IMG/VR virus record: IMGVR_UViG_3300045988_109785
Source: a virus
Reading direction: 5' to 3' (one strand)
DNA: 50,159 bases
In this document: positions 7,425-50,159 of the stretch, in pieces
Numbering within the stretch: the stretch's first letter is position 1
How the letters are laid out: every line of letters starts with the position of its first letter
Program-made: the position numbers and the translations under genes
The notes under the pieces: generated by a model
Seen by the model: the letters and a program-made list of their open reading frames with translations, nothing else
What the model was told of the DNA's origin: nothing
Database searches by the model: none

Positions 7425-7691
7425 TTAGTCTTCTCTATCAAGAACGTTCTGAACCTTCTGGGACTGGGTGCCAAAGTAGAAAGCGATGATGACTGCGTAG
7501 ATGGTCATGAAGTCCTGGGAGATTTGATTGGTGCAGGCCATGTAAGCAAACACACCAGTCAGGGCCAGGGTCACGATGCTCTTGACAGACATCAGGGCAG
7601 CCAGGCGGTTGATGATTTTAGAGTTACCCTTCGGGGTCTCCACCATCTCCCCAACCTCCAGGGTCTCCCCCTGCAGAGTTTCCCTGTCCAT
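7425..7691 (-). CDS. putative holin (two TM segments)
   Basis: ATG at 7691 preceded by GAGAAGGAGGTGAAAACA; TM segments SIVTLALTGVFAYMAC and FMTIYAVIIAFYFG; adjacent to the endolysin. Confidence 0.6.
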   Translation of the reverse strand: MDRETLQGETLEVGEMVETPKGNSKIINRLAALMSVKSIVTLALTGVFAYMACTNQISQDFMTIYAVIIAFYFGTQSQKVQNVLDRED

Positions 7692-8704: not shown

Positions 8705-8716
8705 GAGTATTCCTCC

Positions 8717-9181
8717 TTATTGATTCATGACTTCCTCGATGGTGCCCAGGTCAGTCCACTTTACGTTGATTGTACCAGGAGCCCATACGTTGTTGTCCTG
8801 TCCGCTTCTCCACACATGGCCTTCATGAGTACAACAGTCGTTGGTCATGTAGGGACTGGTGGAAGGGGAGAGGAAGGGCTTGGCTTCCTTCGGGTCGGTA
8901 GACCAGTAGAAGCCCCACTGAGCTACAAGCTCCTCCGGCTCCTGGGTATAGATTGTGGAGTCATAGGGCTGAAGAAGCTTGACTGCATTTCCCTGGGGGG
9001 ATTTGCAGACATACCCGGCCTTGTAATTGAGATACTGCCTCGTGGGGTCAAAGTCAGGAAGGAAGGCTCCCTCTGCCACAACCTCAGTACCAGTCATCTC
9101 AGGAGCTCTCTCTTGAAGAGACTGAGCGGCCAGCTTTCCAGCCTTACGAAGGGTAGACAGAACCAGCTCTTTGTCAGTCAT
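8717..9181 (-). CDS. hypothetical tail/lysis-associated protein
   Basis: 154-aa ORF translationally coupled to its neighbours; Trp/aromatic-rich C-terminus (possible carbohydrate binding). Confidence 0.5.
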   Translation of the reverse strand: MTDKELVLSTLRKAGKLAAQSLQERAPEMTGTEVVAEGAFLPDFDPTRQYLNYKAGYVCKSPQGNAVKLLQPYDSTIYTQEPEELVAQWGFYWSTDPKEAKPFLSPSTSPYMTNDCCTHEGHVWRSGQDNNVWAPGTINVKWTDLGTIEEVMNQ

Positions 9182-9429
9182 ACTTCGTTCACTCCTTCCC
9201 TAATGGCCTTGGCCATCTCAGCATAGGGGTCTTCCTCAGGTTCGGGCTCAGGCTCAGGTTCTGGCTGGGGGGGAACTTCTTCCCACCACAGAGAGCTTAG
9301 GTCAGTCATGAGGAGGCCTTCTCCCGGAGGTATGGTCTCCACTTCCATAGTAGGCTCCCCCGGGGGAATCTGAGAGGGGTCATAAATCAGGAGAGCCCTT
9401 CCATCATCCAGTCTTGCTACGGTTATCAT
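9178..9429 (-). CDS. hypothetical protein with a (PE)n repeat
   Basis: 83 aa; ATGA overlap with the fibre gene; PQPEPEPEPEPEEDP tract. Confidence 0.5.
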   Translation of the reverse strand: MITVARLDDGRALLIYDPSQIPPGEPTMEVETIPPGEGLLMTDLSSLWWEEVPPQPEPEPEPEPEEDPYAEMAKAIREGVNEV

Positions 9430-11255
9430 AGGGCAGGAACACCTCCAAACTCAATACAAGGACCAAAAATGAAGATACCAGAGGATATATTAAGACCTAT
9501 CCAGACCTGGTCTCTCAGGGGGATGGAAATAACCTGAGCCATACCGCTTGGGGAGAAACCATTACTGGTAAATCTCATATTTACTACTGCCAAATAACTA
9601 CCCAGGACAGATGTACTTAGATTATTGGGGTCTATCCTGCGATTGCCATCACTGGTATTATTATAGGAACCTACCAGAGTTCCCCCCAGGACAGTCAGGA
9701 CGAGATTGCCCCAACTAACCGTGGTCTCAGACACTTTACTATGGGTAGTGGTGGAGTATTTTTTGAGGCCATAAGTGCTTGGCCCTGTTTGGTTGTAGGT
9801 ATAGAGATAGTTCCCAAGAACTACCATACTGCTAGCTCCTTGTGCGTCTTGACCTGAGAAAGTGTCCATTTGAGTGGCATCTCCAGAAGAAGAGACATGA
9901 ACCAACTTCCCGGACCGAGAAATGGGGAACACATTATTCGAGCCAATGGAAACAGAGAGGAAGAAGTCATTTCCATTTTGAGCCAAACAGTAAGTGGGGT
10001 AATAAGAACCCGAGGATAATGTTGTCTCATAGCAGATGCTCAGGTCTTTAGTGGTTTTGTTGTACTTGTAAATCCAGAAAGAATTAGCTGAACTGTATGT
10101 ATTAGAGATTCTTCCGATGAAGGCCCAGTCACCCGACTGTTTGAAGGTAGGACTGCCAGGAGCCATAAAACGTTCCCCCGAGAACGAAGAGAAACTCTTC
10201 ACTTGTGTAGGGGCTCCACTGGGTTTCCACTCATAAACCAATATCTGGGAGTCTCCCGAGGAAACAATGAAGATGTCCTCATCACAATAGAGGGGGGAGT
10301 AGTTTCCACTGATTGAACCATAGCTCTTCTTCACCAGGTCGAAATAATACAACGTGTTAGATAGGTTAAAAATAGCCCTGGTACAGTCGGGGGAAAATAG
10401 GGGAAAACTACCTAAAGGAACAGAGTTAGAGCCAGATGAGGGGGGAGGAGAAGCAGCTATAAACTCCATTATAGGAGTATACAATCTAAGGTCCCCGCTG
10501 GTATTCTTGACCTTTCCAAGGTCCCCCAGCTTAGTATTGACCTGGGAGATACTCTGGTTCACCCCTTGAAAGTCTTCCTCTACCTCGGTCTTAAAACTTG
10601 AAAGGTCATTGGAGACCCCCTGGATGAGGTTGAGCAGATTGCCTGCCACATCATCCCCGAGCTGACTCTTGACATCCTCGAACCACTCATCGAAGGAAGC
10701 CTGAGCAGCCGTAAGAAACCCCGAGATGTCGAACTGGTCGATGAGACCGGTTACGATACCACAGCGGTTGGGGTCCGGCCTCATGTCTTTGATGGCCTGC
10801 TGGGTAATGTTTCCAGCACCAGCAGCCACAGTGATTTGGGCCAGCTCCAGCTCCCACACATCAGCATCTCGCTGAAGGGTAACAGCCTTGGGAGAAGCAG
10901 CAGCAGTGCCGGACCGAACATAGAGTTTCATGTCCCGGTCGGTGTTGTTCAGGGCCATGATGATAGAGTCGATACGGGGCAAAGAGGGATTGGCCACAGG
11001 AACAGCAATGACCTCATCCATGTTGTCAGGCACAGTGAGATAGTGGCCCTTAATCCACCCAGTGCCCGGGGTCACCTTAACCTTCATGGCCACAGGCTCC
11101 ATGGCCAGTACGTTGAGCGAGGTAGAAGGCTGACCAAAGACTCCATCTCCGACCAGCAGAGCCCAGTAGTGGGAGAACTCGGCCGAAGAGTAAACTCGGT
11201 CGTAGTTACCACTGCCAAGGTCTACGGCATCGAAGAAGCCATAGGTATAGCTCAT
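9426..11255 (-). CDS. tail fibre / receptor-binding protein
   Basis: 609 aa directly after Tal. The N-terminus MSYTYGFFDAVDLGSGNYDRVYSSAEF is typical of Firmicute siphophage baseplate/fibre proteins. The C-terminus is repeat-like, beta-rich and Ser/Tyr-rich. Confidence 0.65.
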   Translation of the reverse strand: MSYTYGFFDAVDLGSGNYDRVYSSAEFSHYWALLVGDGVFGQPSTSLNVLAMEPVAMKVKVTPGTGWIKGHYLTVPDNMDEVIAVPVANPSLPRIDSIIMALNNTDRDMKLYVRSGTAAASPKAVTLQRDADVWELELAQITVAAGAGNITQQAIKDMRPDPNRCGIVTGLIDQFDISGFLTAAQASFDEWFEDVKSQLGDDVAGNLLNLIQGVSNDLSSFKTEVEEDFQGVNQSISQVNTKLGDLGKVKNTSGDLRLYTPIMEFIAASPPPSSGSNSVPLGSFPLFSPDCTRAIFNLSNTLYYFDLVKKSYGSISGNYSPLYCDEDIFIVSSGDSQILVYEWKPSGAPTQVKSFSSFSGERFMAPGSPTFKQSGDWAFIGRISNTYSSANSFWIYKYNKTTKDLSICYETTLSSGSYYPTYCLAQNGNDFFLSVSIGSNNVFPISRSGKLVHVSSSGDATQMDTFSGQDAQGASSMVVLGNYLYTYNQTGPSTYGLKKYSTTTHSKVSETTVSWGNLVLTVLGGTLVGSYNNTSDGNRRIDPNNLSTSVLGSYLAVVNMRFTSNGFSPSGMAQVISIPLRDQVWIGLNISSGIFIFGPCIEFGGVPAL

Positions 11256-30905: not shown

Positions 30906-31076
30906 TCAGTCTCCTTTCATGTACTCCCAGTCCTTCAGAGAGATCATCTTCTCCCGGACGAGCTTATCAATCACTTTTCCAATGTTGTCCCCATACTTCA
31001 TCATCTTGGCCAGTTTATGCAAATTCCACAGAGTCTGGGGAGTGACCCTGCATGCCAGCCTTCTTAGACTCTTCAT
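30906..31076 (-). CDS. ribbon-helix-helix (Arc/CopG-like) DNA-binding protein
   Basis: ATG 31076 in an ATGA overlap with the deaminase stop; 56 aa; RVTPQTLWNLHKLAKMM...IGKVIDKLV fits a beta-alpha-alpha pattern. Confidence 0.5.
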   Translation of the reverse strand: MKSLRRLACRVTPQTLWNLHKLAKMMKYGDNIGKVIDKLVREKMISLKDWEYMKGD

Positions 31077-31627
31077 GTCATAACCTCCTGGTCGGTAGCA
31101 TCCAGATGAACCACAGTGATGCCGGCAGACTTCAGCAGGTCCAGTCCGGTAGTGTCCCTGTACTCCTTCATGTAGACCAGCTTCTTGATGCCACTGTTGA
31201 CAATCACCTTGGCACAATTGATGCAGGGAGACATGGTGCAGTACATGGTGCAGCCTTCCACAGCCACCCCAGCCCGGGCAGCAAAGGCGATGGCGTTAGT
31301 CTCAGCATGCAGACTCCTGGTACAGCCAGGGCCCATGCACTCAGGATGTCCCTCCTCCCCTCCAGTATACTCAGGCCAGGTTTCAGGTTCATTCGGGTAC
31401 ACCTTAAGCCAGTCTACCTCTCCCACAGGATGAAGGGGAGTAGGTGGGACCTCCTTGGAGGAGCAGGCAGGCATACCAGAGACAGGGCCGTTATACCCCA
31501 TGGAGACCACACGTCCCTCCTTGACAATCACAGCACCAACCTGAGACCTCAGGCAGGTAGACCGTTGAGCCACCACCTGACAAATCTTGATGAACATTTC
31601 ATCCCTTGAAATTCGTTCCCGTATCAC
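31073..31627 (-). CDS. dCMP deaminase (zinc-dependent cytidine/deoxycytidylate deaminase fold)
   Basis: HAETNAI and PCINCAK motifs; RSTC...VGAVIV. GTG 31627 has SD GAAAGGAG at 7 nt; ATG 31654 is an alternative start. A ~40-aa insert lies between GYNG and HAE. Confidence 0.8.
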   Translation of the reverse strand: MIRERISRDEMFIKICQVVAQRSTCLRSQVGAVIVKEGRVVSMGYNGPVSGMPACSSKEVPPTPLHPVGEVDWLKVYPNEPETWPEYTGGEEGHPECMGPGCTRSLHAETNAIAFAARAGVAVEGCTMYCTMSPCINCAKVIVNSGIKKLVYMKEYRDTTGLDLLKSAGITVVHLDATDQEVMT

Positions 31628-31695
31628 CTTGATACTCCTTTCTTGATATGACATTATGTAATCATATTTCTCTTGATTTATACAGTGTGTATATA

Positions 31696-31725
31696 TGTGG
31701 ATAACTTTGTGGAAAATGTGGATAA
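31696..31725 (-). promoter_or_regulatory. cluster of three DnaA-box-like 9-mers (TTATCCACA x2, TTTTCCACA x1)
   Basis: Plus-strand tgtggataa 31696..31704, tgtggaaaa 31708..31716 and tgtggataa 31717..31725, all in the same orientation. Confidence 0.6.
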
Positions 31726-31853
31726 CCGGGGCACCCCGTATAGGGCCGCTGGGAGCCCGCTGGGGCCATTTTACCCCCTGGGGGGTATAAACATACCAGT
31801 GACCCCCTAAAAAGCCCCCCAGGCTGGCCCTGTGCTCCCCGTGGCACCCATAT

Positions 31854-32309
31854 TTATCCCAGGCCCCCAGGGGGAGTGAATTCAGGGGGTAATTTCGTGC
31901 CTCGTACGAGTTTGACCTTATCCAACCAGACCCACAGGCAATGGCCCTCTTGACCCTCCCGGCCATGGGTCCTCAGGTTCAGGGCATGGCCGTCCAGTAC
32001 CACATCCTTGAACTCCACACCTGGGATATACCAGCCACCCACCTGGCAGGCAGCAACAATCCTCCCTTGACCTACACCCTCCACATAGACCTCCTTATCC
32101 TCCCACAGATGGAGAGGACAGGCAGGGTAGTAGCCAGGCACCTTACTCCGGACATCCCAGCAGTTCCACCCAGGGCCACAGGCCTCAGCCATTGGACTCA
32201 GTGCCTCCAGCTTCTCCCGGTACAGGTTCATCAGGTTGGCAATCTCCAGCATGACTCTCAGTGGGTTCTCCAGCTTCCTGGCCTCCGGTATTCCTCCTTG
32301 AACGTTCAT
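31854..32309 (-). CDS. hypothetical protein
   Basis: 151 aa; SD GGAAGGAGGT. Confidence 0.55.
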   Translation of the reverse strand: MNVQGGIPEARKLENPLRVMLEIANLMNLYREKLEALSPMAEACGPGWNCWDVRSKVPGYYPACPLHLWEDKEVYVEGVGQGRIVAACQVGGWYIPGVEFKDVVLDGHALNLRTHGREGQEGHCLWVWLDKVKLVRGTKLPPEFTPPGGLG

Positions 32310-38561: not shown

Positions 38562-39407
38562 ATGAAACCTGAGCTTAATCGCAACAGGGTCCTCGGCTCC
38601 CTGCTTGGCTTTGCCATCGGGGATGCCATGGGGGCAACCACAGAGTTCATGTCCCAGAGGGAAATCTACCAGAAGTACGGGGAGGTCAAGGACATCATCG
38701 GAGAAGGCTGGCTGAACCTCAAGCCCGGGGAGGTCACCGACGACACTCAGATGATGACCATCGTGGCCAAGGCCCGAATGAACAGCCTGGAGACCTTCAC
38801 CAGGGATTGCTGCACTGGCTTTGTGGACTGGCTCAGCGGGGGTCCTAAGGACGTAGGAGGGGCCTGTAAGGCCGCAATCCTCCAGGGGGGTAGGAAATCC
38901 CCGGATGAGTGGATGAGGCTCTCTATGGAGCGCCAGGAGGCCAACCAGCGGCTTGACCTGGGCAACGGGGCAGTGATGAGGGCTCTGTTCCTGGCCCTGA
39001 ATGATGAGCCCAACCTGGCAGTTCACCAGGGGCGCCTGACCCACAACAACCCCACTTCGGACAGGTACATCAGAGACTACTGCTACGCTGTCTACAGGGC
39101 TCTGTTCTTCCCAACCCTGTGGGCAGGGGACGAAGACCATCTGGAACTGATGGCACCCACAGGACACGTAGAGAACTCGGTGAACAACGCCATCTACTGG
39201 AGCTTCAACGCTTTGAACTTCAGGGATGCCATCATCGGTCCGGTCAACCATGGGGGAGATGCTGACACCATCGCTGCCTTGACTGGGGGGATAGCCGGAG
39301 CTCACTTCGGGGCTAACCACATTCCCAGGAAGTGGATAGAGGCTCTCGACCCCCATGTGGTCAAAGACCTCCAGGACATGGCCGACTGGCTCATGGAAAA
39401 CCAGTAA
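38562..39407 (+). CDS. ADP-ribosylglycohydrolase (ARH/DraG family)
   Basis: LGFAIGDAMGATTEF, GEVTDDTQM and GGDADTIAALTGGIAGAHFG are family hallmark motifs. Confidence 0.85.
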   Translation: MKPELNRNRVLGSLLGFAIGDAMGATTEFMSQREIYQKYGEVKDIIGEGWLNLKPGEVTDDTQMMTIVAKARMNSLETFTRDCCTGFVDWLSGGPKDVGGACKAAILQGGRKSPDEWMRLSMERQEANQRLDLGNGAVMRALFLALNDEPNLAVHQGRLTHNNPTSDRYIRDYCYAVYRALFFPTLWAGDEDHLELMAPTGHVENSVNNAIYWSFNALNFRDAIIGPVNHGGDADTIAALTGGIAGAHFGANHIPRKWIEALDPHVVKDLQDMADWLMENQ

Positions 39408-40523: not shown

Positions 40524-40961
40524 ATGAGCAAGAAACGTAAAATCCCAGTAAAGCCCAGTCTCATTCGAGGTACCCACTACCTTACCGAGGCCGGAGTGGA
40601 GGCTGATGAAATAAGGACTCTCATCCTCAGGAGAAGGCTGCAGGTCCTCGTTCATTCCTGCATCTACTATGTGTTCAACGAGAACATCATCCCTGACTCC
40701 ACATGGAGTGCTTGGGCGAGGGAGCTGGCTGAGCTTCAGGAGAAGTACCCTTCCATCGCTGCCCGAGTGGACTACGCCAAGGAGTTCCAAGGCTTTGATG
40801 GCAGTACTGGCTTCCACCTTCCTACCCGCAATCTTGAGATTATGGCCAAGGCTCAGTACCTCCTAAAAATCAGAAAGGAGAAAGCCAATGTTAGAGACTC
40901 TGGACACCAAGCTCATCGAGCAGACACTCCAAGTACTGTCGTTCGAATCTGCTTTCCATGA
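40524..40961 (+). CDS. hypothetical protein
   Basis: 145 aa. IYYVFNENIIPDSTWSAWARELAELQEKYP is reminiscent of the LigA Ia-type helical motif. The 3' end overlaps the next gene by 74 nt. Confidence 0.5.
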   Translation: MSKKRKIPVKPSLIRGTHYLTEAGVEADEIRTLILRRRLQVLVHSCIYYVFNENIIPDSTWSAWARELAELQEKYPSIAARVDYAKEFQGFDGSTGFHLPTRNLEIMAKAQYLLKIRKEKANVRDSGHQAHRADTPSTVVRICFP

Positions 40962-41439
40962 CCCACACTGGAGGGAGTTCGTCGAGACAGCCTACAGGGT
41001 ATGTGTTCCTCTGGACTTCTACCTCATGCCTGCCAGTATGTCGGGGAAGCATCACCAGGGGTATGAGCTTGGAGTTGGGGGACTGGTGAGACACACCAAG
41101 GCGGCCATGATTGTGGCCAAGACCCTGTTCCCCCTGTACCACTATCAGGACCACGAGCAGGACCTTCTCATGGCTGCCTTGGCCCTGCACGACATTGCCA
41201 AGCCCAGCAAGACCCACCCTGTGGAAGTGAGACCCTTGCTTGAGCCCATCGAGAACGACTACTACAACGAGATTGAGAAGGTAGTCCCCCTCATCGAGAC
41301 CCATCATGGACAATGGGACTGCTTTGGCAAACTGCCCAGACCCAAGTCCTCCAAGCAGAACTTCGTCCATCTCTGCGACTACATCGCCTCTCGCAAGAAC
41401 ATTGCGATTGACATCAACTATCAGGAGGAGAACACATGA
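40888..41439 (+). CDS. HD-domain phosphohydrolase
   Basis: SGKHH...LVRH...ALHDIAKP...ETHHG pattern (H..HD..H). Confidence 0.7.
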   Translation: MLETLDTKLIEQTLQVLSFESAFHDPHWREFVETAYRVCVPLDFYLMPASMSGKHHQGYELGVGGLVRHTKAAMIVAKTLFPLYHYQDHEQDLLMAALALHDIAKPSKTHPVEVRPLLEPIENDYYNEIEKVVPLIETHHGQWDCFGKLPRPKSSKQNFVHLCDYIASRKNIAIDINYQEENT

Positions 41440-42104
41440 AAGTCATCCATCCCTATGTCAACCCCCAGATGCTCCCTCCCCGAAAGGTCCTGTATGGCCT
41501 TCTGGAGGCCGCAGGGAGAACCTGCTACCTGTCTGAGAGAGTGGAGGGGGACACCACAGAAAAGTTCATCCAGCGGCTCATGAAGCGCAAGCACTGGTCT
41601 GTTCTGGAGCACGGGAACCTCTCCGTTCGTATTGTCTGCGACCGTGGTGTAACCCATGAACTGGTCCGCCACAGAATCGCCTCCTACTCCCAGGAGAGCA
41701 CCCGGTACTGCAACTACTCCGGGGACAAGTTCGGTGGGGAGATTAAGGTCATTGACCTGGCTACTGGCTTCAAGTACGACCTGGACAATCCTCAGGACCG
41801 GGCCAAGTATGAGGAGTGGATGGCCGCTATGAAGGACGCGGAGAGGCACTACATGAAGATGCTGGAGCTGGGGGCTACTCCTCAGGAAGCCCGCTCTGTG
41901 CTGCCCACAAGCACCAAGACTGAGATTGTGGTCACGATGAACGTACGGGAGTGGAGACACTTCCTGGAGATGCGTTGGGTCGGTGTGGCAGGAACCCCCC
42001 ACCCTCAGATGCGGGAGATTGCCGAACAGGTCTATGACCTGCTGGCTCTGCACTATCCCATCCTCTTTGAGGACCTGAAGGGCTCTATCAAGAGAGCTCA
42101 GTAA
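41436..42104 (+). CDS. thyX: flavin-dependent thymidylate synthase ThyX
   Basis: ThyX signature RHRIASYSQESTRY. Confidence 0.85.
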   Translation: MKVIHPYVNPQMLPPRKVLYGLLEAAGRTCYLSERVEGDTTEKFIQRLMKRKHWSVLEHGNLSVRIVCDRGVTHELVRHRIASYSQESTRYCNYSGDKFGGEIKVIDLATGFKYDLDNPQDRAKYEEWMAAMKDAERHYMKMLELGATPQEARSVLPTSTKTEIVVTMNVREWRHFLEMRWVGVAGTPHPQMREIAEQVYDLLALHYPILFEDLKGSIKRAQ

Positions 42105-42123
42105 ACCTCAAGAGTTTAGCTCA

Positions 42124-42152
42124 TTTACAACCCCATTTTCTTATGGTATTAT
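42124..42152 (+). promoter_or_regulatory. Promoter CTCATTTACA-N17-TATTAT
   Basis: tttaca 42124..42129; tattat 42147..42152. Confidence 0.6.
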
Positions 42153-42209
42153 ATAAGCATCCCACAAGGGAGTAAATTACCTACTCAACATAATAAGGAG
42201 GAAAACACA

Positions 42210-42782
42210 ATGGCGAAGAACAAGAAGCCCAAGTTCCTGGAGAAGGAGACCCCCGACCTGCTGGCTCTGCTGAAGGAGACCCTGGCTGAGGAGGAGGCCG
42301 ACACCAGGAAGGCCCTGAAGATTACGGAGGAGCTCATCTCCCGCCTGCCTCAGGACGAGGGCCCGATGTCTGTGGATGAGGCTCTGAAGGCTGCCGCTGA
42401 CCAGATGACCGCTGCTCTGAACAACATCAAGGGCGCCTACGACAACGAGGTCTCCATGATGGAGGACTCCCAGGAGGAGCCTGAGGAAGAGGCTGAGGAG
42501 GAGGAAGAGACCCCCAAGGCCAAGAAGGGCAAGAAGGACAAGAAGTCCAAGAAGGCCAAGAAGGAAGAGCCCGAGGAGGATGAGGACGACTCCGATGAGG
42601 AGGAGGACTCCGAGGACGATGAGGACTCCGAGGACGATGAGGACGAGGACGACGGTGAGGACTACACTGACTGGTCCACCAAGGACCTGAAGAAGGAGTG
42701 CCGGACCCGTGGCATCAAGGTCACCAAGGGCATGGGCAAGGCTGAGATGGTCAAGGCTCTGGAAGCCGATGACAAGGAGTAA
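42210..42782 (+). CDS. polyacidic protein with a C-terminal HeH/SAP-like motif
   Basis: 190 aa; a D/E tract of about 60 aa; WSTKDLKKECRTRGIKVTKGMGKAEMVKALE. Confidence 0.6.
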   Translation: MAKNKKPKFLEKETPDLLALLKETLAEEEADTRKALKITEELISRLPQDEGPMSVDEALKAAADQMTAALNNIKGAYDNEVSMMEDSQEEPEEEAEEEEETPKAKKGKKDKKSKKAKKEEPEEDEDDSDEEEDSEDDEDSEDDEDEDDGEDYTDWSTKDLKKECRTRGIKVTKGMGKAEMVKALEADDKE

Positions 42783-42817
42783 GACCCACTCCTTCACAGC
42801 CGCATAGACCAAGAGGA

Positions 42818-42851
42818 GGGGGTGGACACAAAGTCCACCCCCTTTCTTTTT
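42818..42851 (+). terminator. Rho-independent terminator
   Basis: GGGGGTGGAC-acaaa-GTCCACCCCC followed by TTTCTTTTT. Confidence 0.8.
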
Positions 42852-42870
42852 CATCAAGGAGAAGTAACTT

Positions 42871-44835
42871 ATGAAAGAGACTATCAAGTTTCTGGTGCAA
42901 ATCTTCTCCCAACAGTGCGAACGTGGTGACTATGTTATCTTGGCAGCTAAGGACGGGAAGTTCTGGAAGGATGTCCCCATCAAGTATGGAAAGAACCTCA
43001 GTGAAAAGCTCAAGGAATTCTTCCAAGCATACCCACCTGAGAAATATGACCTGTACTGGTCTCCCATGCCCTACACTCAGCCCAAGAGACAAAACCGGTT
43101 CTCGGTAGATACCAAGTTCATGGCTCAGGACATAGATGAGTGTGAGGACCCCTCCTCCATCAGTCCCAAGCCAAGCTACATCTGGGAGAGCTCACCGAAC
43201 AAATACCAGGGCCTATGGGAGTTGGACCGGTACATCAACGAGCAGGAATACACTCCCCTCAACAAAGCCCTGGCTGCACACATAGGCTGCGATGACTGCT
43301 TCGACTTCGCCCATGTCTACCGTATCCCTGGCACCATCAACCACAAGTACAAGAACCTCCCCCCTGTGGGGCGGGTGAAGCCCACAAAGGCCCTTTATAA
43401 GCCGCGTGACATCCGGAAGGCTGTGGGGGGTGTAACTACTACCCCTAAGAAGGAAAAAGCCCCCAGCGCCTCTCCAGAGGCCTCTGAGCAGGATATGCTG
43501 GCTGAGCGGAGAATATACGCTAAGTACTCCATCCCCAAAAAGGTACGAGACACCCTGGCCCTCCAGTCCCTGAATGGGGTAGACCGGTCAAGTACTATCT
43601 GGTACGTAGAGAAGTCCCTGCATGAGCTGGGCATGACCCCACAGGAAATCATCCTGCTCATCAAGAACAGTGTCTTCAACAAGTACAGGGGGAGAGCTGA
43701 TGAGGACGCCCGACTCCACAGGGAGCTGGAGAAAATCATCGGAGACTCTATCCCTGACCCTGAGGACTCGGCAGCAGGAGCCCTGACTACCTCCACCTAT
43801 GGAGAGGTCATGGGTAACTGCAACACCTTCGAAGGATGGCTGGTACGTGGCTTCTGGGGCCGGAGGTCTCATGGAATTGTGGCCGGCATGCCTAAGTGCT
43901 TCAAGTCCACTCTGGTCCATGACCTCATCATCTCTGTAGCCAGTGGCACCAAGTTCCTTGGTCGCTTCCCTGTGGAAGAGCCCGGTCCTGTTCTGGTCAT
44001 TCAGAACGAGAACGCTGACTATATCATGAAGGACCGTACGGAGAAGATTATCCTCGACCGTGGACTGGTAGGAGAGGCTCACAGAATAAACCGGAGACAT
44101 GTTCAAGTGGAGTTCCCCCCGGACCTGCCCATCACCTTCATCAATCAGCAGGGCTTCACCCTCAGCAATGAGGACCACAGAAGACAGATTGAACTCCTTG
44201 TTCAGGAACTCAAACCCGTGCTTGTGGTATTCGACCCCCTGTACCTTATGTTCGAGGGAGACCTCAATTCATCCAAAGACTTGAACCCCGTGTTGAACTG
44301 GTTGCTCAGTCTCAAGACCGACTACCATACCAGTGTCTTGGTTGTCCATCACTACAACAAGGGAAGTCAGCAGGGGCAGCTTAAGGGCGGTGCCCGAATG
44401 GCTGGCTCGGTCATGTTATATGGTTGGGTTGAGTCTGCCTGGTACATCACCAAAGTGGAGGAGGAAGAGGAGCCCATTCCTAACCAGGCCGTAGACTATG
44501 CCGAAGCCTCAGGAAGTGCCACTGTGACACTCTCCAGGGAGTTTCGTATGGCCGGTCATTTCTCTGACTTGGATGTCCACTTCGACATGGGAGAGATTGG
44601 CAATCCACAGTACAACGTGACCCTGGGAGGCCCAGGCTCTGGACATGTAACCATCAAGACTCTTGAGGGAGAGATACTCAACTTCCTGGCCAACTCCACA
44701 GTACCCCTCTCCAAGGGAACGATACAGGATAACCTGGGCGTTGAAAGCAAGGTCCTCAGTAAGGCCTTGAATGAACTGGTCAAATCCAAGAAAGTTGTTA
44801 CAATAAACGGTGGGTACACCATTTCCAAACGCTAA
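42871..44835 (+). CDS. primase-helicase fusion (RepB'-type primase N-terminus, RepA/AAA_25 RecA-fold helicase, C-terminal wHTH)
   Basis: N-terminus: MAQDIDE, PSYIWESSPNKYQGLWEL, VYRIPGTINHKY. Centre: Walker A GMPKCFKST, Walker B VLVVFDPL, VVHHYNKG. Confidence 0.7.
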   Translation: MKETIKFLVQIFSQQCERGDYVILAAKDGKFWKDVPIKYGKNLSEKLKEFFQAYPPEKYDLYWSPMPYTQPKRQNRFSVDTKFMAQDIDECEDPSSISPKPSYIWESSPNKYQGLWELDRYINEQEYTPLNKALAAHIGCDDCFDFAHVYRIPGTINHKYKNLPPVGRVKPTKALYKPRDIRKAVGGVTTTPKKEKAPSASPEASEQDMLAERRIYAKYSIPKKVRDTLALQSLNGVDRSSTIWYVEKSLHELGMTPQEIILLIKNSVFNKYRGRADEDARLHRELEKIIGDSIPDPEDSAAGALTTSTYGEVMGNCNTFEGWLVRGFWGRRSHGIVAGMPKCFKSTLVHDLIISVASGTKFLGRFPVEEPGPVLVIQNENADYIMKDRTEKIILDRGLVGEAHRINRRHVQVEFPPDLPITFINQQGFTLSNEDHRRQIELLVQELKPVLVVFDPLYLMFEGDLNSSKDLNPVLNWLLSLKTDYHTSVLVVHHYNKGSQQGQLKGGARMAGSVMLYGWVESAWYITKVEEEEEPIPNQAVDYAEASGSATVTLSREFRMAGHFSDLDVHFDMGEIGNPQYNVTLGGPGSGHVTIKTLEGEILNFLANSTVPLSKGTIQDNLGVESKVLSKALNELVKSKKVVTINGGYTISKR

Positions 44836-44850
44836 AAGTTGTGATATAAT
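44822..44850 (+). promoter_or_regulatory. possible promoter TTTCCA-N17-TATAAT (extended -10 TGTGATATAAT)
   Basis: Overlaps the 3' end of the primase-helicase gene. Confidence 0.4.
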
Positions 44851-44883
44851 GTACCTATCCAAACAAAAGGAGGTAACCTCAAA

Positions 44884-45504
44884 ATGATGATTTTTACTGG
44901 CATGGACAACTCGGGCAAGACCACGATAGTCCAGAAGACTGCTAAGAAGCTTGGCCTTCCTGTGGTCAAGTCCCTGGGTCCGGCCCACCCTGTGGACGAG
45001 AAGCACATCTGGCTGCTTGACCAGATGACCCGGGAGAAGGCTTTCCCTGGCTCTGTTATCTTCGACCGCTTCCTCCCCTTTGAGGAGATGGTCTATGGCA
45101 AGGTCCTGCGGGGAGACCCCATCTATTCCCTGGATGACCCCTACATGAAGTCCCTCAAGGACTTGAACCCCACCATCGTCTACACCCGTCCTCACTCCTC
45201 TACCATCTTCAACTGGGATGGCCGGGAGCAGATGGACGGAGTGATTGAGCAGAAGGAGAAGCTCCTGGCTGCCTGGGATGACCTGATGTGGGGCCTGATG
45301 GCCAGAGGCTGGGACGTCCAGGTCTATGACTACGAGGCTGAGAATGAGGGCGAACAGGTCTCCGGCCTGGAAGAGTTCGCCAAGTTTCTGAACGACCTGG
45401 TCAAGACCACCTATCCCCCCCATCCGAAGGATGGTCAGCCCCTGCAGTGGAAGAAGCATAAGCCCCTGGAGAACATCGACGAAGATGAGGAGGACGAAGA
45501 CTAA
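44884..45504 (+). CDS. P-loop (deoxy)nucleotide kinase, thymidylate-kinase-like
   Basis: GMDNSGKTT P-loop and a DRFLPFEEMVYG (DRY-like) motif; acidic C-terminus. Confidence 0.6.
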   Translation: MMIFTGMDNSGKTTIVQKTAKKLGLPVVKSLGPAHPVDEKHIWLLDQMTREKAFPGSVIFDRFLPFEEMVYGKVLRGDPIYSLDDPYMKSLKDLNPTIVYTRPHSSTIFNWDGREQMDGVIEQKEKLLAAWDDLMWGLMARGWDVQVYDYEAENEGEQVSGLEEFAKFLNDLVKTTYPPHPKDGQPLQWKKHKPLENIDEDEEDED

Positions 45505-46175
45505 TGAACATCAATCATGCAACTGTGGAAGAGGTCACTGGCGACAAGCTTCAGGCCATCTTCACCCGCCAGAAGTCCCTGATGGACAAATACCACGACA
45601 TCGAGCTTCGGTCTGGGCTGCTTCAGACTGAGGACTGCCCGGTCAACCTGGATGACAAGAGAGGCCAGGCCCGTATCAAGGACTTCTCCTGGAGAGTCAC
45701 CGAGGAACTGGGAGAGGCCCTGGACGCCCGGTCCAATAAGGACCACTACCAGGAGGAGCTCATCGATGGACTTCACTTCCTGACCGAGCTCACCATCCTG
45801 GCTGGAAAGGACTATGACTCCATCCTCCCCCAGGGGACTCCGCTCTATGACAGTGACCATCTGGAGGACCTGGTGGAGAATGCCAAAGAGGTAATCTCCC
45901 GAAGAGCTTCCCAGGGCGAGAATGGGTATAGCCTGGAGTACTGGGTCTCCAAGTTCATCGAGAATCTGGGCATGATGTGCAACTGCCTGAAGAACAAGCC
46001 CTGGAAGCAGTCCATGATGAAGACCGACCATGAGGCCTTCTACAGCCGACTGTCTGAGGTCTGGGTCATCTATATCACTATCCTGGTGGTCTCCGGAATG
46101 AATGCCCAGGACATCGCCAACATCTACCTGAAGAAGTCTCAGGTAAACCAGTTCCGGCAGAGAAGCAACTACTAA
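45504..46175 (+). CDS. all-alpha NTP pyrophosphohydrolase (dimeric dUTPase / MazG-like)
   Basis: WRVTEELGEALDA...EELIDGLHFLTEL...KNKPWKQ pattern. Confidence 0.55.
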   Translation: MNINHATVEEVTGDKLQAIFTRQKSLMDKYHDIELRSGLLQTEDCPVNLDDKRGQARIKDFSWRVTEELGEALDARSNKDHYQEELIDGLHFLTELTILAGKDYDSILPQGTPLYDSDHLEDLVENAKEVISRRASQGENGYSLEYWVSKFIENLGMMCNCLKNKPWKQSMMKTDHEAFYSRLSEVWVIYITILVVSGMNAQDIANIYLKKSQVNQFRQRSNY

Positions 46176-46187
46176 GGAGAAGGCCCC

Positions 46188-46931
46188 ATGCTGAAGAAAC
46201 ACTACAAGGACTTCAGTGAGGCCTACTTCGGGGTCAATCGGGAAATCCTGCTGCATCCACAGCATCTGGACTACCTGGAGAACACCAGGGGAGTCGTAGA
46301 AGACCTCTTCCTCACTCTCGACAGCATTGACTGTGAGAAGGTTGACTTAGCTCCCCTGGGGTACTCCCCCCGGAAGTGGGGACACCTGGTCAAGACCTAC
46401 ATTGACCTGGATAAACTCAGGGAGTTCTTCCACCTCTGTGAAATCTCAAAGGGCATCTCCATTGGGTATGACTTCAAGAGAAAGGATACGGGCAATGGGT
46501 CCTGCATGAGGGAAGTTATCCTCACCCGCCACAGCAGGAAGAAGCCCTGGACCAAGGCCACAGTTATCTGGAGGGCCACAGAGCTACAGAAGAGATGGGC
46601 AGCTGACCTCATCCTTCTGCACCACCTGCTCTCCAAGGTCCCCAACTCCCAGTTCACCGAGATTGAGTTCTTCATCACAAGTGCTTACCAGTCAGGCATG
46701 TATGTCATTCCTTTGGTGGAGCCAGTGTTCGGAGTGAAGATGAAGGACTTGGACCCTACAGCTCATCCTTACTGGAAGATTATCCGGTACCGGAATGACA
46801 AGTACTATCAGGAGGACTCCCCCAGGCAGAAGCTCAGTCCTGCTCAAAGAATGCAGGATGTGGCCAATGCCCTCCGGGAAGGGAAAACCTTCGAACCTAT
46901 CACCTACAAAGACTTTGAATTGGAGGTATGA
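46188..46931 (+). CDS. divergent ThyA-fold protein (paralogue of the next gene)
   Basis: GSCMREV...ATVIWRATELQKRWAADLILLHHLL aligns loosely with VPCSLGY...LHYVMRSCDFVTHFRNDVYLAIKFL in 46935..47666. Confidence 0.4.
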   Translation: MLKKHYKDFSEAYFGVNREILLHPQHLDYLENTRGVVEDLFLTLDSIDCEKVDLAPLGYSPRKWGHLVKTYIDLDKLREFFHLCEISKGISIGYDFKRKDTGNGSCMREVILTRHSRKKPWTKATVIWRATELQKRWAADLILLHHLLSKVPNSQFTEIEFFITSAYQSGMYVIPLVEPVFGVKMKDLDPTAHPYWKIIRYRNDKYYQEDSPRQKLSPAQRMQDVANALREGKTFEPITYKDFELEV

Positions 46932-46934
46932 CAA

Positions 46935-47666
46935 ATGAGAATCTACACCAACGCCCAGGAGATGGTCGAGGAGGTCAAGAGGGACCTGGCCGAGATGGGA
47001 ATTGTGGTACGGCCTGCGACCATGCAGGACAAGTATGTCAAGGGCAATCCTGACTACGAGACCAAGGAGCTGCAGAACTACAGCTACTGCCTGCTTAATG
47101 CCCGGAGCCAGGACATCCCGGGAGTCATTCAGCCCTGGGCTGATGCTGAGTTCAAGGAGCGGGTCACTGACCCCTGGGAAAGGGACTGGGAAGGGAAGAG
47201 AACCCTGTTCCAAGTTCCTGAGTTCATCAACCCCGGTGAGGCCTGGAAGCTCCGGGAGGAGGTATGGTCTGAGTATATGCACGACGGGAAGCTGGCCTAC
47301 ACCTACAACGAGCTCCTGTGGAACAATGACCAGCTGACCAAAATCATGAACCGCCTGAAGGAGGACCCGGACTCCCGGCAGCTGTGGATTAGCCTTTGGA
47401 ACCCGGACAAGGACCCCGACTTCCTGGGGGGTGTCTCCCGAGTTCCCTGCTCCCTGGGCTATGGTCTCCAGGTTCGGGATGGCAAGCTCAACCTGCACTA
47501 CGTGATGAGGTCCTGTGACTTCGTGACCCATTTCCGGAACGATGTCTATCTGGCCATCAAGTTCCTGGAGTGGGTAGCTGAGAAGACTGGCTATCCTGTG
47601 GGAGACTTTACCCACACCATGTTCTCCTGCCACGTATACAACAAAGACATCCAGGGGGTATTCTGA
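46935..47666 (+). CDS. ThyA-family pyrimidine-5 methylase/hydroxymethylase (thymidylate-synthase fold)
   Basis: Aligns by eye to E. coli ThyA: LKEDPDSRQLWISLWNP / LKNDPDSRRIIVSAWN; VPC (catalytic Cys); DGKLNLHYVMRSCD / DGKLSCQLYQRSCD; GDFTHTMFSCHVY / GDFVWTGGDTHLY. Confidence 0.75.
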   Translation: MRIYTNAQEMVEEVKRDLAEMGIVVRPATMQDKYVKGNPDYETKELQNYSYCLLNARSQDIPGVIQPWADAEFKERVTDPWERDWEGKRTLFQVPEFINPGEAWKLREEVWSEYMHDGKLAYTYNELLWNNDQLTKIMNRLKEDPDSRQLWISLWNPDKDPDFLGGVSRVPCSLGYGLQVRDGKLNLHYVMRSCDFVTHFRNDVYLAIKFLEWVAEKTGYPVGDFTHTMFSCHVYNKDIQGVF

Positions 47667-50107
47667 TGGCCTGTCATGACTGCAACCTTTGTGCCTTCTC
47701 CAGTCCTACGTGTATCTGGGGAGCCGGCCCCCCCAAGGCCAAGGTCATGGTAGTCAACAGCTATGCCACAGAACAAGATGAACAGGAGGGGGCGGCAGTC
47801 ATGCCGTCCTCCCTTGTTGAAAGACTGAGGGCCATAGGACTTGACCCTGAGAAGGTCTACTATACCAACGCCATTAAGTGTGCCTGCCCAAGAGGAACCA
47901 AGTACAAAGTGGGGGACATCAAGAAGTGCAAGCAGCACCTGGACAAGGAGATTGCTGCAGTCCAACCTACCTACGTTCTGGTCCTGGGTGCTCAGGCTCT
48001 GAAGGCCACAGTAGATGGCTCCATCACTGAACTCAACGGAGTGATGGTGGAGAAGGATGGGATTAAGTACATGCCCTCCTACAGTCCTGGCATAGTTTAC
48101 CGTGACCCCGGGAAGGCCCCCTTTGTGGAGAAAGCCATGAACAACTTCAAGGCCATGATGGAAGGAAGCCTGGAGGGACTTCCAGAACTGGACATCAGGC
48201 TCATCACTAATATGAGGGAACTCAAAAGGGCCTTTCACCATCTGAAGGACAACAACTATCTGCACCTGAGCTATGATATTGAGACCACTGGACTGGTGAG
48301 GTTTGAGGATGAAGTGAACCTGTTTGGCTTTGGCAATGACCAGGTCCAATATATCATCCCGCTGGAGGCCCGCTACAGCCCGCTGAAGGGCGCCAGGCTG
48401 GCCCAAAGGAAACTCATTAGGACATGTGTGAACTGGCTAAATAGGAACGCTAAAGCCCTCGTGGCGGGCAATGGAAAGTTCGATGACCTGTTCCTGAAGT
48501 ATCGCTTTGGGGTAAAGCCCAACATCACCTTCGACGTAGTGCTGGCCTCCCACATACTCAATGAGAATACTCCCAACGGTGTGAAGGAGAATGCAGTGCT
48601 GGAGTGCAATGCTCCGGAGTGGGATGTGGACAAGGACCTCAAGACAGGCAAGTACAAGACCCGGGAGGAGTATCAGGAATACTTGACCTACCTGGGGTAC
48701 GACATCTACTATGAGTATAAGCTCTATAGAGTGTTCCACAAGAAGCTCAAGCAGGACCGAGCCCTGATGAAGCTCTTCTACCATCTCTACATGCCCGGCA
48801 TCATTTCCTACGAGACTGTGGAAGAACACGGGGTGTTCATTTATCCACAGCAGTTCAAAAAGGTCCGAAAGCACTTGGAGTCTGAGAGAGAAGCCATTGA
48901 GAAGCAACTCCTGAAGATGGCCAAGCACGAGGTCAACTGGAACTCCCCGGCCCAGATACAGAAGCTGCTGTATGAAGAGCTCAAGCTTCCAGTGATTGAG
49001 ACCACGGAGTCTGGCTCTCCCTCCACAAGTGAGGCTACCCTGATGCAGCTGAGGGACAAACACCCCATTGTAGAACTCATCCTGAAGTACCGGGGTGTCA
49101 ACATTCAAATCTCTCACTTCATCGATGGCTGGATTAACCGAATGTGGGGGAGAAGACTGTTCCCCAACTTCAAGCTACATGGGACTGTCACGGGAAGAAC
49201 CTCCTGCACTGACCCCAACCTTCAGCAGGTACCTCGAGACCCCATCATCCGAAATCTGGTGGGAGCTCCGGAAGGCTGGTCTGTGGTGGAGATTGACTAC
49301 TCCCAGGCAGAGCTCCGCATAGCAGCCATCATGTCTGGGGATGAGACCATGAAGCGTATCTACCAGACCGGGGGAGACATCCACACTCACACGTACGAGA
49401 TGATAACCGGAGAGAAGGTCTCCGATGACAAGTACATCAAGAAGGAACAACGCAAAAAGGCGAAGGCTGTAAACTTCGGATTTGTCTACGGCATGGGCTG
49501 GAGGAAGTTCAAGATTTACGCTCGAGACAATTATGGGGTGGACCTCACAGACAAAGAGGCTGAGCAGTGGAGAGAGAGATTCTTCCAGGCCTACCACTCC
49601 CTTCCCAAGTGGCACTCCAAGCAGAGAAGAATTGTCCAGTCTATGGGCCAGGTTAGGTCTCCCATTGGAAGACTCCGGAGGCTCCCTGACATTTACTCCA
49701 CAGACAAGTCAAAGAAAGCTGAAGCTGAGAGACAGAGTATCAACTCCCCAGTGCAGGGCTTTGGCTCTGACCTGACTATCTTGGGAATGTCTGAGATTAT
49801 GGGCAATGCCCAGTACTATGACCCTGACTACGTACTGGACAAGGACAAGTTCTTTGTCATAGGTACAGTCCACGATGCTACCCTGTTCGAAGTGAGAAAC
49901 GACTACCTGATGGAGTTTTGTCCCCGGGCCAAGCATATCTTGGAACACCCAAAGGCTCTTGAGGATGTATTCCACTTTGACACTGATGTGCCGATTGTGG
50001 CTGATGTGGCAGTAGGCAAGTCTTGGGGTGCAGGCATAGAGCTCCACATGGAAGAGGGTGGAGACTGGCAAGACCAACTCAAGACTTACCTGGATGGCCT
50101 GAAATAA
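47666..50107 (+). CDS. UDG-family-4-like domain fused to a family A DNA polymerase with 3'-5' exonuclease (SPO1-type)
   Basis: N-terminus: CHDCNLC...NAIKCACP (Fe-S UDG-like). Exo motifs: YDIETTG, NGKFDD, YLGYDIYY. Pol motif A DYSQAELRIAA, motif B KAKAVNFGFVYGM, motif C TVHDATLFE. Confidence 0.85.
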   Translation: MACHDCNLCAFSSPTCIWGAGPPKAKVMVVNSYATEQDEQEGAAVMPSSLVERLRAIGLDPEKVYYTNAIKCACPRGTKYKVGDIKKCKQHLDKEIAAVQPTYVLVLGAQALKATVDGSITELNGVMVEKDGIKYMPSYSPGIVYRDPGKAPFVEKAMNNFKAMMEGSLEGLPELDIRLITNMRELKRAFHHLKDNNYLHLSYDIETTGLVRFEDEVNLFGFGNDQVQYIIPLEARYSPLKGARLAQRKLIRTCVNWLNRNAKALVAGNGKFDDLFLKYRFGVKPNITFDVVLASHILNENTPNGVKENAVLECNAPEWDVDKDLKTGKYKTREEYQEYLTYLGYDIYYEYKLYRVFHKKLKQDRALMKLFYHLYMPGIISYETVEEHGVFIYPQQFKKVRKHLESEREAIEKQLLKMAKHEVNWNSPAQIQKLLYEELKLPVIETTESGSPSTSEATLMQLRDKHPIVELILKYRGVNIQISHFIDGWINRMWGRRLFPNFKLHGTVTGRTSCTDPNLQQVPRDPIIRNLVGAPEGWSVVEIDYSQAELRIAAIMSGDETMKRIYQTGGDIHTHTYEMITGEKVSDDKYIKKEQRKKAKAVNFGFVYGMGWRKFKIYARDNYGVDLTDKEAEQWRERFFQAYHSLPKWHSKQRRIVQSMGQVRSPIGRLRRLPDIYSTDKSKKAEAERQSINSPVQGFGSDLTILGMSEIMGNAQYYDPDYVLDKDKFFVIGTVHDATLFEVRNDYLMEFCPRAKHILEHPKALEDVFHFDTDVPIVADVAVGKSWGAGIELHMEEGGDWQDQLKTYLDGLK

Positions 50108-50159
50108 TCCAAGAATGACCCCCATTCCAGGGGGTCTTCTTTTGTGGTATAATATACAC
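50105..50159. repeat. Second copy of the 55-bp terminal overlap
   Basis: Identical to 1..55. Confidence 0.9.

Follow-up and report, generated by a model that had tools for sequence, protein, structure and literature searches.

The window analyzed here, meaning the whole stretch of DNA, is the 50,159-nucleotide IMG/VR virus record IMGVR_UViG_3300045988_109785, in which a gene block at positions 40888 to 50107 encodes enzymes of pyrimidine metabolism together with a primase-helicase and a family A DNA polymerase. We propose that this block is probably the nucleotide-reprogramming part of a replication module resembling that of phage T4, with residues and modeled folds pointing to cytosine as the target and to a 5-substituted form as the product. 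Cytosine in the phage DNA would be replaced by this form, with 5-hydroxymethylcytosine most likely and favored over 5-methylcytosine. At the center of the block are protein A (46935 to 47666), a short homologue of the thymidylate synthase ThyA with cytosine-type residues, and immediately upstream of it protein B (46188 to 46931), 247 amino acids long, which is assigned to no family and for which structure prediction gives the same fold. An initial annotation, made from the letters alone, had taken the block for a DNA base-modification pathway; all genes that it listed are real open reading frames (ORFs) where it placed them, and the block is co-oriented as it had described. The toolkit logic that it drew on, in which a ThyA-like transferase, a deoxynucleoside monophosphate (dNMP) kinase, a nucleoside triphosphatase directed against the canonical deoxynucleoside triphosphate (dNTP), and a deaminase work together, holds, and the gene set, which goes beyond plain supply of deoxythymidine monophosphate, is best read as making a 5-substituted pyrimidine from mononucleotides.

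Protein A resembles phage enzymes that act on dCMP

Protein A, encoded on the plus strand, matches PF00303 (E 1.3e-19), and public records label it “thymidylate synthase.” Its best NCBIfam score is 69 bits, against thymidylate-synthase equivalog cutoffs of 108 to 576. We aligned A with Escherichia coli ThyA and with the T4 deoxycytidine monophosphate (dCMP) hydroxymethylase gp42, the T4 sequence being checked against PDB 1B49. In E. coli ThyA numbering, A retains Cys146, Arg166, Ser167, Asp169, His207, Tyr209, Trp80, Tyr94, and Arg126 and carries four substitutions: Asn177 to Asp, His147 to Ser, Leu143 to Arg, and Arg127 to Gln. The Asp at position 177 is part of an FRND motif common to A and gp42. 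The chain ends 8 residues past the HVY motif, and the C-terminal lid is missing. Judged as a ThyA, A has the fold and the PF00303 match as well as Cys146, Arg166, and Asp169, and it lacks Asn177, His147, the C-terminal segment, and an equivalog-level score; judged as a gp42-type enzyme, it has the Cys nucleophile, Asp177 (Asp179 in T4), Asp169, and the short C terminus. Across 79 viral loci with homologues of the same clade (clade A, 37 to 98% identity), Asp occupies position 177 in 76 of the 79 homologues and Arg the Leu143 position in at least 74.

The Asn177-to-Asp change is an established substrate switch from deoxyuridine monophosphate (dUMP) to dCMP, and positions 177 and 147 best separate ThyA homologues on modified-cytosine contigs from others (PMC13326640; PMC8670742). 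The same sources give Asp169 to Asn as the mark of flavin-dependent 5-hydroxy-dCMP synthases and describe hydroxymethylation as accompanied by an acidic residue (Asp or Glu) at position 143 (PMC13326640; PMC8670742). N177D by itself converts thymidylate synthase into a dCMP methylase (PMC8670742; bioRxiv 10.1101/2024.12.05.627091). The position-143 rule appears loose, because the homologue from PaMx74, a phage stated to replace C with 5-methylcytosine (bioRxiv 10.1101/2024.12.05.627091), has Asn there.

On these residues, A reads as a folate-type dCMP C5-transferase and not as an ordinary thymidylate synthase, as had been suspected of both ThyA-fold proteins in the initial annotation and as the subthreshold scores, Asp177, and the absent lid of A bear out. 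Most likely, A is a 5-hydroxymethyl-dCMP synthase. Hydroxymethylation appears more likely than reductive methylation because A is C-terminally short like gp42, because the flavin-dependent thymidylate synthase ThyX is present, and because a search of the window found no dihydrofolate reductase (DHFR) homologue, unlike the situation of the full-length PaMx74 enzyme, which lies beside a DHFR. Since A is without the C-terminal lid needed for hydride transfer, release of 5-hydroxymethyl-dCMP would be its most likely outcome. Both ThyA-fold proteins appear to carry Asp at the Asn177 position, which argues for cytosine as the target and for T4 rather than SPO1 as the analogue. As first stated, the sequence does not reveal the exact base, but the pyrimidine can now be narrowed down, most likely to cytosine.

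The best PDB sequence matches of A are the 5-hydroxy-dCMP synthases RB69 gp48, DLP3 gp80, and HY126 AfhB (9iqu, 9iqc; E 4e-14), and T4 gp42 lies outside the top 60. A 5-hydroxycytosine synthase was nevertheless ruled out for A, which keeps Asp169 (RSCD, compared with RSQN in the HY126 enzyme, PDB 9iqu), and a flavin-dependent hydroxylase reading is not supported for either protein because the Asp169-to-Asn change is absent in A and apparently also in B. By the full criteria for a 5-methyl-dCMP synthase of the XP12/PaMx74 type, A has Asp177 and lacks the PaMx74-like C-terminal region. Together with its homologues, A forms a distinct clade of short ThyA proteins in which Arg is conserved at position 143, and this clade is one of the new features of the system.

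Protein B represents a divergent ThyA-fold family

By sequence, protein B (plus strand) matches nothing in Pfam, NCBIfam, or the PDB and shows no similarity to A in BLASTP, and 10 distant members of its family likewise lack a Pfam or NCBIfam match. Its AlphaFold model, built from 17 homologues, reaches a pLDDT of 90 and a pTM of 0.89. When this model is compared with the PDB by Foldseek, all 50 matches listed have the ThyA fold (one is a designed protein on that scaffold), with TM scores of about 0.5; the best are the HY126 dCMP hydroxylase (E 3e-7), the T4 dCMP hydroxymethylase, and MilA, and thymidylate synthases are found too. Among predicted viral structures, the top matches are uncharacterized phage proteins (TM score, 0.69 to 0.79), one of them from Pseudomonas phage PMBT14, and these are followed by annotated thymidylate synthases and dCMP hydroxymethylases. 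B is thus predicted to have the ThyA fold, and the second ThyA-fold protein of the initial annotation is borne out by structure and not by sequence.

When 1.84 billion representative proteins were searched with a profile, 278 clusters of B homologues were recovered. B is absent from 185,579 bacterial and archaeal species genomes. Across 50 members with identity to the window protein down to 18 to 25%, Lys63, Tyr71, Cys106, Arg129, and Asp140 are invariant and Glu132 is nearly so, and each of 82 further matches (100%) keeps the Cys, the Arg, and the Asp. Aligned with A by hhalign, B gives a negative result with small profiles and a weak one with large profiles (E 1e-4 global and 7e-4 local, probability of about 30%). 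This profile alignment, combined with the order of secondary-structure elements, sets Cys106 against Cys146, Arg129 against Arg166, Glu132 against Asp169, and Asp140 against position 177. With the residues mapped in this way, B looks like an active cysteine-dependent enzyme that would also recognize the cytosine ring. Its substrate may not be a 5'-monophosphate, because B lacks the paired partner-donated arginines.

The B family is unannotated, and as a conserved ThyA-fold partner of A it is the chief new feature of this system. In the literature searched, we found no paper on B and none on DNA modification in any phage carrying it, including the relatives described below that infect Clostridium perfringens, PMBT14, and the Gordonia relative. 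We tentatively suggest, as a possibility on the unlikely side, that B founds a ThyA-fold family with a new mononucleotide-level reaction on cytosine nucleotides, in which case phages with both A and B would hold an undescribed cytosine derivative. One possibility for such a reaction is that 5-hydroxymethyl-dCMP is reopened via a Cys-C6 adduct and a different group is added at the exocyclic methylene.

The junction between the two genes is tight. B ends in ...GGAGGTATGACAAATG, with a GGAGG at 46922 to 46926 within its last codons and the junction reading TGA-CAA-ATG. As the ribosome-binding site of A lies within the last codons of B, the two genes appear to be translationally coupled. We also observe that A and B share one frame, with only TGA-CAA between them (46929 to 46937), such that a single stop-codon read-through would fuse both ThyA-fold proteins.

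The A/B cassette is conserved in gene order across distant phages

To describe linkage, the ORFs of the 79 viral loci were scanned with hidden Markov models, considering a neighborhood of 5 kb. B lies within this distance of A in 70 of the 79 loci, nearly always immediately upstream and on the same strand. For the all-alpha nucleoside triphosphate pyrophosphatase (PPase) encoded next to B, the count over the same distance is 77 loci, and for the kinase that precedes it 50; the gene order PPase-B-A is seen in 70 of the 79 loci, which are independent of one another, and in 19 of the 79 a deaminase gene is located between A and the polymerase. Two B genes occur in at least 12 loci; phages with two B paralogues beside one A are L012 (MT121960), L026, L033, L035, L043, L051, and L091 to L097. 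Seven loci (L048 to L050 and L053 to L056) instead show the order A-kinase-PPase with no B within 5 kb; one of these, L053, encodes a gp32-like single-stranded DNA-binding protein and an anaerobic ribonucleotide reductase, and two other B-less loci are on contigs of about 245 kb. Because the trio occurs without B in another lineage, the minimal set appears to consist of A, the kinase, and the PPase, to which B is often added.

The closest cultured relatives are the C. perfringens phages CPD4, CP3, P21, Clo-PEP-1, and CPAS-15. Gene order is kept in them, with A and the PPase each 64% identical, the kinase 44%, and B 33%. These relatives are found at the protein level only, as a megablast search of the gene block against 50,697 phage records returned no match. 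The order helicase-kinase-PPase-B-A-(dCMP deaminase)-PolA recurs in Pseudomonas phage PMBT14 (gp51 to gp45), in Gordonia phage CherryonLim (gp57 to gp46, of which gp51 matches the B profile with 96.8% probability), and in gut phage MT121960, where ThyX and two B paralogues (6843 to 7835 and 8705 to 9442) accompany one A. The primase-helicase is a conserved upstream neighbor of the cassette (L001, L013, and viral loci). As a separate observation, MT121960 encodes at 350 to 1264 an AAA+ ATPase with a sigma-54 interaction domain (PF00158, E 4e-52), which is unusual in a phage.

A is very common in metagenomes, where a search yielded 1,187 proteins at E ≤ 1e-10, and many of the contigs that encode them are close to 50 kb long. 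In the 185,579 species genomes, clade A is limited to four contigs of 7.5 to 62 kb (three of 54 to 62 kb), binned with Lachnospiraceae, Bacilli, Dysosmobacter, and Clostridium metagenome-assembled genomes. This weakly suggests a lytic phage with a host among gut Firmicutes, probably a member of the Clostridia.

Accessory enzymes of nucleotide metabolism

Upstream of B, a P-loop kinase of the Tmk/dNK fold (44884 to 45504, plus strand) matches PHROG 761, “thymidylate kinase” (E 3.5e-12), and no Pfam family over its cutoff. Its translation contains the Tmk-like P-loop GMDNSGKTT and a DRF motif, and Foldseek with its AlphaFold model (pLDDT 81, with a disordered acidic C-terminal tail) retrieves SPbeta prophage YorR (3kb2, E 6.5e-8), deoxyadenosine and other deoxynucleoside kinases, and thymidylate kinases, in agreement with the Tmk-like kinase first annotated. 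The model indicates a nucleotide kinase and not a DNA kinase, and we propose it as a putative dNMP kinase for modified dCMP. A DNA-level 5-hydroxymethyluracil kinase was ruled out by the Tmk/dNK fold and motifs and by the cytosine-type substrate base. The adjoining PPase gene (45504 to 46175, plus strand) matches PF08761 (E 6.8e-11) and PHROG 12184, “nucleotide pyrophosphohydrolase” (E 1e-47), and its product carries the EExxE/ExxD metal-binding motifs (TEELGEA and EELIDG) of the all-alpha pyrophosphatases of the dimeric dUTPase/MazG clan, the assignment that it had been given initially. We propose that it may act as a dCTPase/dUTPase that excludes dCTP and supplies dCMP.

Two further genes open the block. 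ThyX (41436 to 42104, plus strand) is identified by PF02511 (E 2.4e-48) and by the RHRxxSxxxxSxR motif, which reads RHRIASYSQESTR in the translation. By analogy with T4, we propose that it would supply deoxythymidine monophosphate (dTMP) in the role of td; ThyX enzymes work without dihydrofolate reductase. The HD phosphohydrolase (40888 to 41439, plus strand) matches PF01966 (E 1.4e-7, above the gathering score) and PHROG 5889 (E 5.5e-38), and its family has homologues in the C. perfringens phages, Clostridium phage c-st, SPO1 (gp32.6), and other SPO1-like phages, with no function given in the records. It is possibly a dNTP or dNMP hydrolase.

A dCMP deaminase of the ComEB/T4 cd type lies outside the block, as the initial annotation had noted, on the minus strand at 31073 to 31627 (PF00383, E 7.8e-25; TIGR02571, E 1.3e-31; HAE and PCxxC motifs). 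A dCMP deaminase beside ThyA homologues is reported to be a hallmark of modified-cytosine contigs (bioRxiv 10.1101/2024.12.05.627091). The deaminase ORF of the window can be extended upstream to 297 amino acids (31073 to 31966, minus strand), with the domain beginning near Met105, and an insert of about 45 residues separates the HAE and PCxxC zinc motifs.

The block closes with a family A polymerase (47666 to 50107, plus strand) composed of a uracil-DNA glycosylase (UDG)-like domain (PF03167, E 2e-13), a 3'-5' exonuclease (PF01612, E 9.5e-8), and PolA (PF00476, E 1.3e-82). The UDG-like domain aligns with the family 4 UDG of Thermus thermophilus (1UI0, E 7e-16) and keeps the four Fe-S cysteines, yet both catalytic motifs are lost, GEGPG being replaced by NSYAT and HPA by SPG. 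In SPO1-like polymerases the UDG domain is described as active, and in N4-like ones the catalytic residues are lost (bioRxiv 10.1101/2025.03.26.645540). The UDG-like N terminus had been counted initially among the signs of base modification; because both of its catalytic motifs are lost, we do not regard it as evidence for modification.

Proposed pathway and alternative explanations

We propose the following scheme, all steps of which are inferred from sequence and fold. The PPase would hydrolyze dCTP, and probably dUTP too, to the monophosphate, so that dCTP is kept from the polymerase and dCMP is fed onward. The cysteine of A would then attack C6 of dCMP, and the one-carbon unit of methylene-tetrahydrofolate would be transferred to C5, giving most likely 5-hydroxymethyl-dCMP and, as a second choice, 5-methyl-dCMP. 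The Tmk/dNK-fold kinase would raise this product to the diphosphate and host nucleoside-diphosphate kinase to the triphosphate, which the phage PolA would incorporate. In parallel, the dCMP deaminase, providing dUMP, and ThyX would make dTMP in the manner of T4 cd and td. B would carry out a second Cys-dependent reaction on dCMP or on the product of A, which is the most likely role for it, or would form a heterodimer with A, and the HD protein, coupled to ThyX, would act as a phosphohydrolase. That a ThyA homologue with Asp177 together with an NTP pyrophosphatase, a kinase, and a deaminase indicates modified cytosine is already established; the pairing of clade-A ThyA homologues with ThyX is new.

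Several points weigh against this scheme. The modified base is a prediction from sequence and fold, and among the subset of proteins scanned with Pfam or PHROGs, with several ORFs still unannotated, no glycosyltransferase or other postreplicative modifier was recognized. The acidic residue that gp42 has at the Leu143 position (Asp145 in T4) is absent in A, whose conserved Arg143 exactly matches neither the T4 hydroxymethylase pattern nor that of the methylases. The residue equivalences of B come from the low-probability (about 30%) profile alignment and secondary-structure order and not from superposition, and nothing in B corresponds to the pair of arginines by which one ThyA subunit completes the active site of the other. 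For the PPase and the HD protein, the substrates proposed are guesses. Finally, the tetranucleotide GATC is nearly absent from the window, with 3 sites (14852, 30942, and 32649) versus about 173 expected (z = -17.7), which implies that any modification present does not free this lineage from GATC-directed restriction. In close relatives with the same cassette, GATC ranges from 0 to normal numbers. The avoidance is thus lineage specific and is probably due to restriction in particular hosts, against which the modification gives no protection. CTAG is also depleted (11 versus 93 expected). GGCC, CCGG, and GCGC are not avoided in the window, which counts in favor of the scheme; CpG is strongly depleted, standing at 0.44 of expectation, and TpA at 0.65 in a genome of 53% G+C. 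Overall, the genome statistics are compatible with the cytosine-modification scheme and not decisive.

The same architecture could also serve a reductive dCMP methylase, in which case the phage would contain 5-methylcytosine like XP12 and PaMx74. We consider this unlikely, though several points favor it: Asp177 is common to the 5-methyl-dCMP synthases, the N177D change alone suffices to give a dCMP methylase, the Leu143 position of A is nonacidic (Arg), and five of seven deaminase-linked ThyA homologues tested made 5-methyl-dCMP (bioRxiv 10.1101/2024.12.05.627091). However, the PaMx74 enzyme keeps a long C terminus (298 amino acids) and has a DHFR gene adjacent, whereas A is short and the window contains no DHFR. 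Moreover, XP12 obtains its dTTP by deamination of 5-methyl-dCTP and needs no other thymidylate synthase (bioRxiv 10.1101/2024.12.05.627091), while the phage studied here keeps ThyX. The same ThyX, which can provide ordinary dTMP, together with Asp instead of Asn at position 177 in A and apparently in B, led us to reject a 5-hydroxymethyluracil pathway of the SPO1 type, in which thymine would be replaced by 5-hydroxymethyluracil or a derivative, made directly from dUMP or through deamination of 5-hydroxymethyl-dCMP. The HD family shared with SPO1 gp32.6 and other SPO1-like phages, the UDG-like N terminus of PolA, as in SPO1, and the ability of some phage deaminases to turn 5-hydroxymethyldeoxycytidine nucleotides into 5-hydroxymethyldeoxyuridine ones (bioRxiv 10.1101/2024.12.05.627091) would fit such a pathway, but the UDG-like domain is degenerate and no 5-hydroxymethyluracil DNA kinase or aGPT-Pplase family was detected among the proteins scanned, so that we hold it to be very improbable.

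The block might instead have nothing to do with DNA modification and only boost or buffer the dNTP pool, A and B being thymidylate synthases that have diverged or relics that have lost activity. In many phages, ThyX, Tmk, dUTPase, and dCMP deaminase serve nucleotide supply alone, GATC is strongly avoided here as in unprotected genomes, and the public label of A would agree with this explanation. It is nonetheless improbable, as A falls under every thymidylate-synthase equivalog cutoff, resembles cytosine-type enzymes at positions 177 and 147, and has no lid, and as dTMP synthesis is already covered by ThyX; the relic version is further disfavored because phages of Firmicutes, Actinobacteria, and Proteobacteria have kept the catalytic-type residues of both proteins. 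A different question concerns B alone, which could be a noncatalytic or half-site subunit, pairing with A as a heterodimer in place of the ThyA homodimer and tuning the activity or product of A. Enzymes with the ThyA fold are obligate dimers whose subunits share their active sites, and the coupled translation of B and A would favor 1:1 expression. The two also co-occur in 70 of the 79 loci, and the paired partner-donated arginines are absent in B and reduced to one in A (DSRQ). On the other hand, the invariance of Cys106, Arg129, and Asp140 at 18 to 25% identity is the pattern of an active site, and an obligate 1:1 partner does not explain why some phages have two B paralogues and others A without B; we rate this role as rather unlikely. 

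Genome organization and neighboring genes

A 55-bp direct repeat is present in identical copies at 1 to 55 and 50105 to 50159, leaving a unique length of 50,104 bp, and the window is a complete phage genome in a circular assembly. In near-identical contigs and in relatives, the polymerase gene directly precedes the genes seen at the window start, which encode a PD-(D/E)XK nuclease, an AAA_24 ATPase, a DUF669 protein, a VRR-NUC-like protein, a DUF1599-like protein, and an SNF2 helicase. On the circular map, the replication module continues across the window ends. The DUF1599-like gene (3042 to 3605, plus strand), which the initial annotation had placed elsewhere in the genome along with the deaminase, is by the circularity of the assembly and the gene order in relatives about 3 kb downstream of the polymerase and belongs to the same module. 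The assignment of its product, a protein with an acidic tail, to PF07659 (“nucleotide modification associated domain 1”; E 1.9e-4) is weak, at 22.1 bits under the Pfam cutoff of 25.

Within the block, the HD stop and the ThyX start overlap by 4 nucleotides, and 1-nucleotide overlaps join the kinase to the PPase and A to the polymerase, a tight packing that suits coupled translation. Between ThyX and the kinase are an acidic SAP protein (42210 to 42782; 23.2 bits, slightly under the cutoff of 23.9) and a RepB-type primase fused to an AAA_25 (RepA-like) helicase (42871 to 44835, plus strand; PF13481, E 3.8e-28; PF16793, E 6.9e-7). Acidic tails or runs recur in proteins of the replication module, namely in the kinase (45420 to 45504, ending in DEDEEDED), in the DUF1599-like protein (3540 to 3605, ending in EDEDDGDEEE), and in two SAP-domain proteins (42210 to 42782 and 1936 to 2736), and may be docking sites for a common partner.

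Just ahead of the block, an ORF at 40524 to 40961 (plus strand) encodes a stand-alone Ia (NAD-binding) domain of NAD+-dependent ligases (PF22745, E 5e-29). It overlaps the start of the HD ORF by 74 nucleotides, and the gene calls of near-identical public contigs do not include it. Just upstream lies a gene for an ADP-ribosylglycohydrolase (38562 to 39407), and the two may form an NAD+/ADP-ribose-related counterdefense pair.

Implications

If the proposed scheme is true, an abundant group of gut phages of about 50 kb replaces cytosine with a 5-substituted form, and cultured relatives on C. perfringens, Pseudomonas, Serratia, and Gordonia do likewise. This would matter for sequencing and amplification bias in virome studies, for sensitivity to restriction and to modification-dependent defense systems, and for the choice and behavior of therapeutic phages, C. 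perfringens phages being under development for poultry. Enzyme discovery for epigenetic sequencing would profit as well. The B family, which comprises 278 clusters and in which Cys, Arg, and Asp do not vary, offers a concrete candidate for novel C5 chemistry on pyrimidines that is testable in cultured phages, and if B does perform a new reaction, the undescribed cytosine derivative would also be found in cultured Clostridium, Pseudomonas, Serratia, and Gordonia phages.

Comparison with known systems

The initial annotation had drawn its parallel to both T4 and SPO1, of which the T4 part stands, on Asp177 and ThyX, and the SPO1 part does not. The SPO1 5-hydroxymethyluracil pathway is alike in concept, in that a ThyA-like hydroxymethylase acts together with a kinase while the canonical nucleotide is removed, and it shares the HD family and a UDG-like PolA N terminus with the phage described here. 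This phage differs in having Asp instead of Asn at position 177, an intact ThyX, and a degenerate UDG-like domain, that of SPO1-like polymerases being described as active. In this last respect it is closer to the N4-like family A polymerases of the Czernecki classification, as cited in bioRxiv 10.1101/2025.03.26.645540, which likewise join a dead UDG domain to an exonuclease and PolA; for the polymerase here, the likeness is shown by motif loss alone.

Among systems that modify cytosine, the 5-methyl-dCMP synthases of XP12 and PaMx74 are similar, being ThyA homologues with Asp177 whose genes lie in a cluster with those for an NTP pyrophosphatase and for dCMP deaminase. In PaMx74, however, the enzyme is full length (298 amino acids) and is accompanied by a phage DHFR, whereas here A is truncated and occurs with ThyX and without DHFR. 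RB69 gp48, DLP3 gp80, and HY126 AfhB are also short ThyA-fold enzymes acting on dCMP, and they are the best PDB matches of A by sequence and of B by fold. Their diagnostic Asp169-to-Asn change (RSQN) sets them apart from A, which has RSCD, and from B, which apparently has Glu at the corresponding place.

The closest parallel in organization is T4, in which the gp56 dCTPase, gp42, the gp1 dNMP kinase, cd, and td show the same division of labor, every step acting on mononucleotides ahead of replication. A resembles T4 gp42 in that both are ThyA-fold proteins of the dCMP C5-transferase type with Asp177 and a short C terminus, although A has Arg where gp42 has Asp145 and the relationship is distant. 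The carrier also differs, being a 50-kb phage with a primase-helicase/PolA replication module and not a T4-like myovirus. ThyX with two ThyA-fold genes had been called a nonstandard arrangement; ThyX with one of them follows the logic of T4 td and gp42, and it is the second ThyA-fold protein that is unusual. Compared with T4, then, the phage described here has no DHFR and no recognized glucosyltransferase, and it employs ThyX in place of ThyA and adds the further ThyA-fold protein B.

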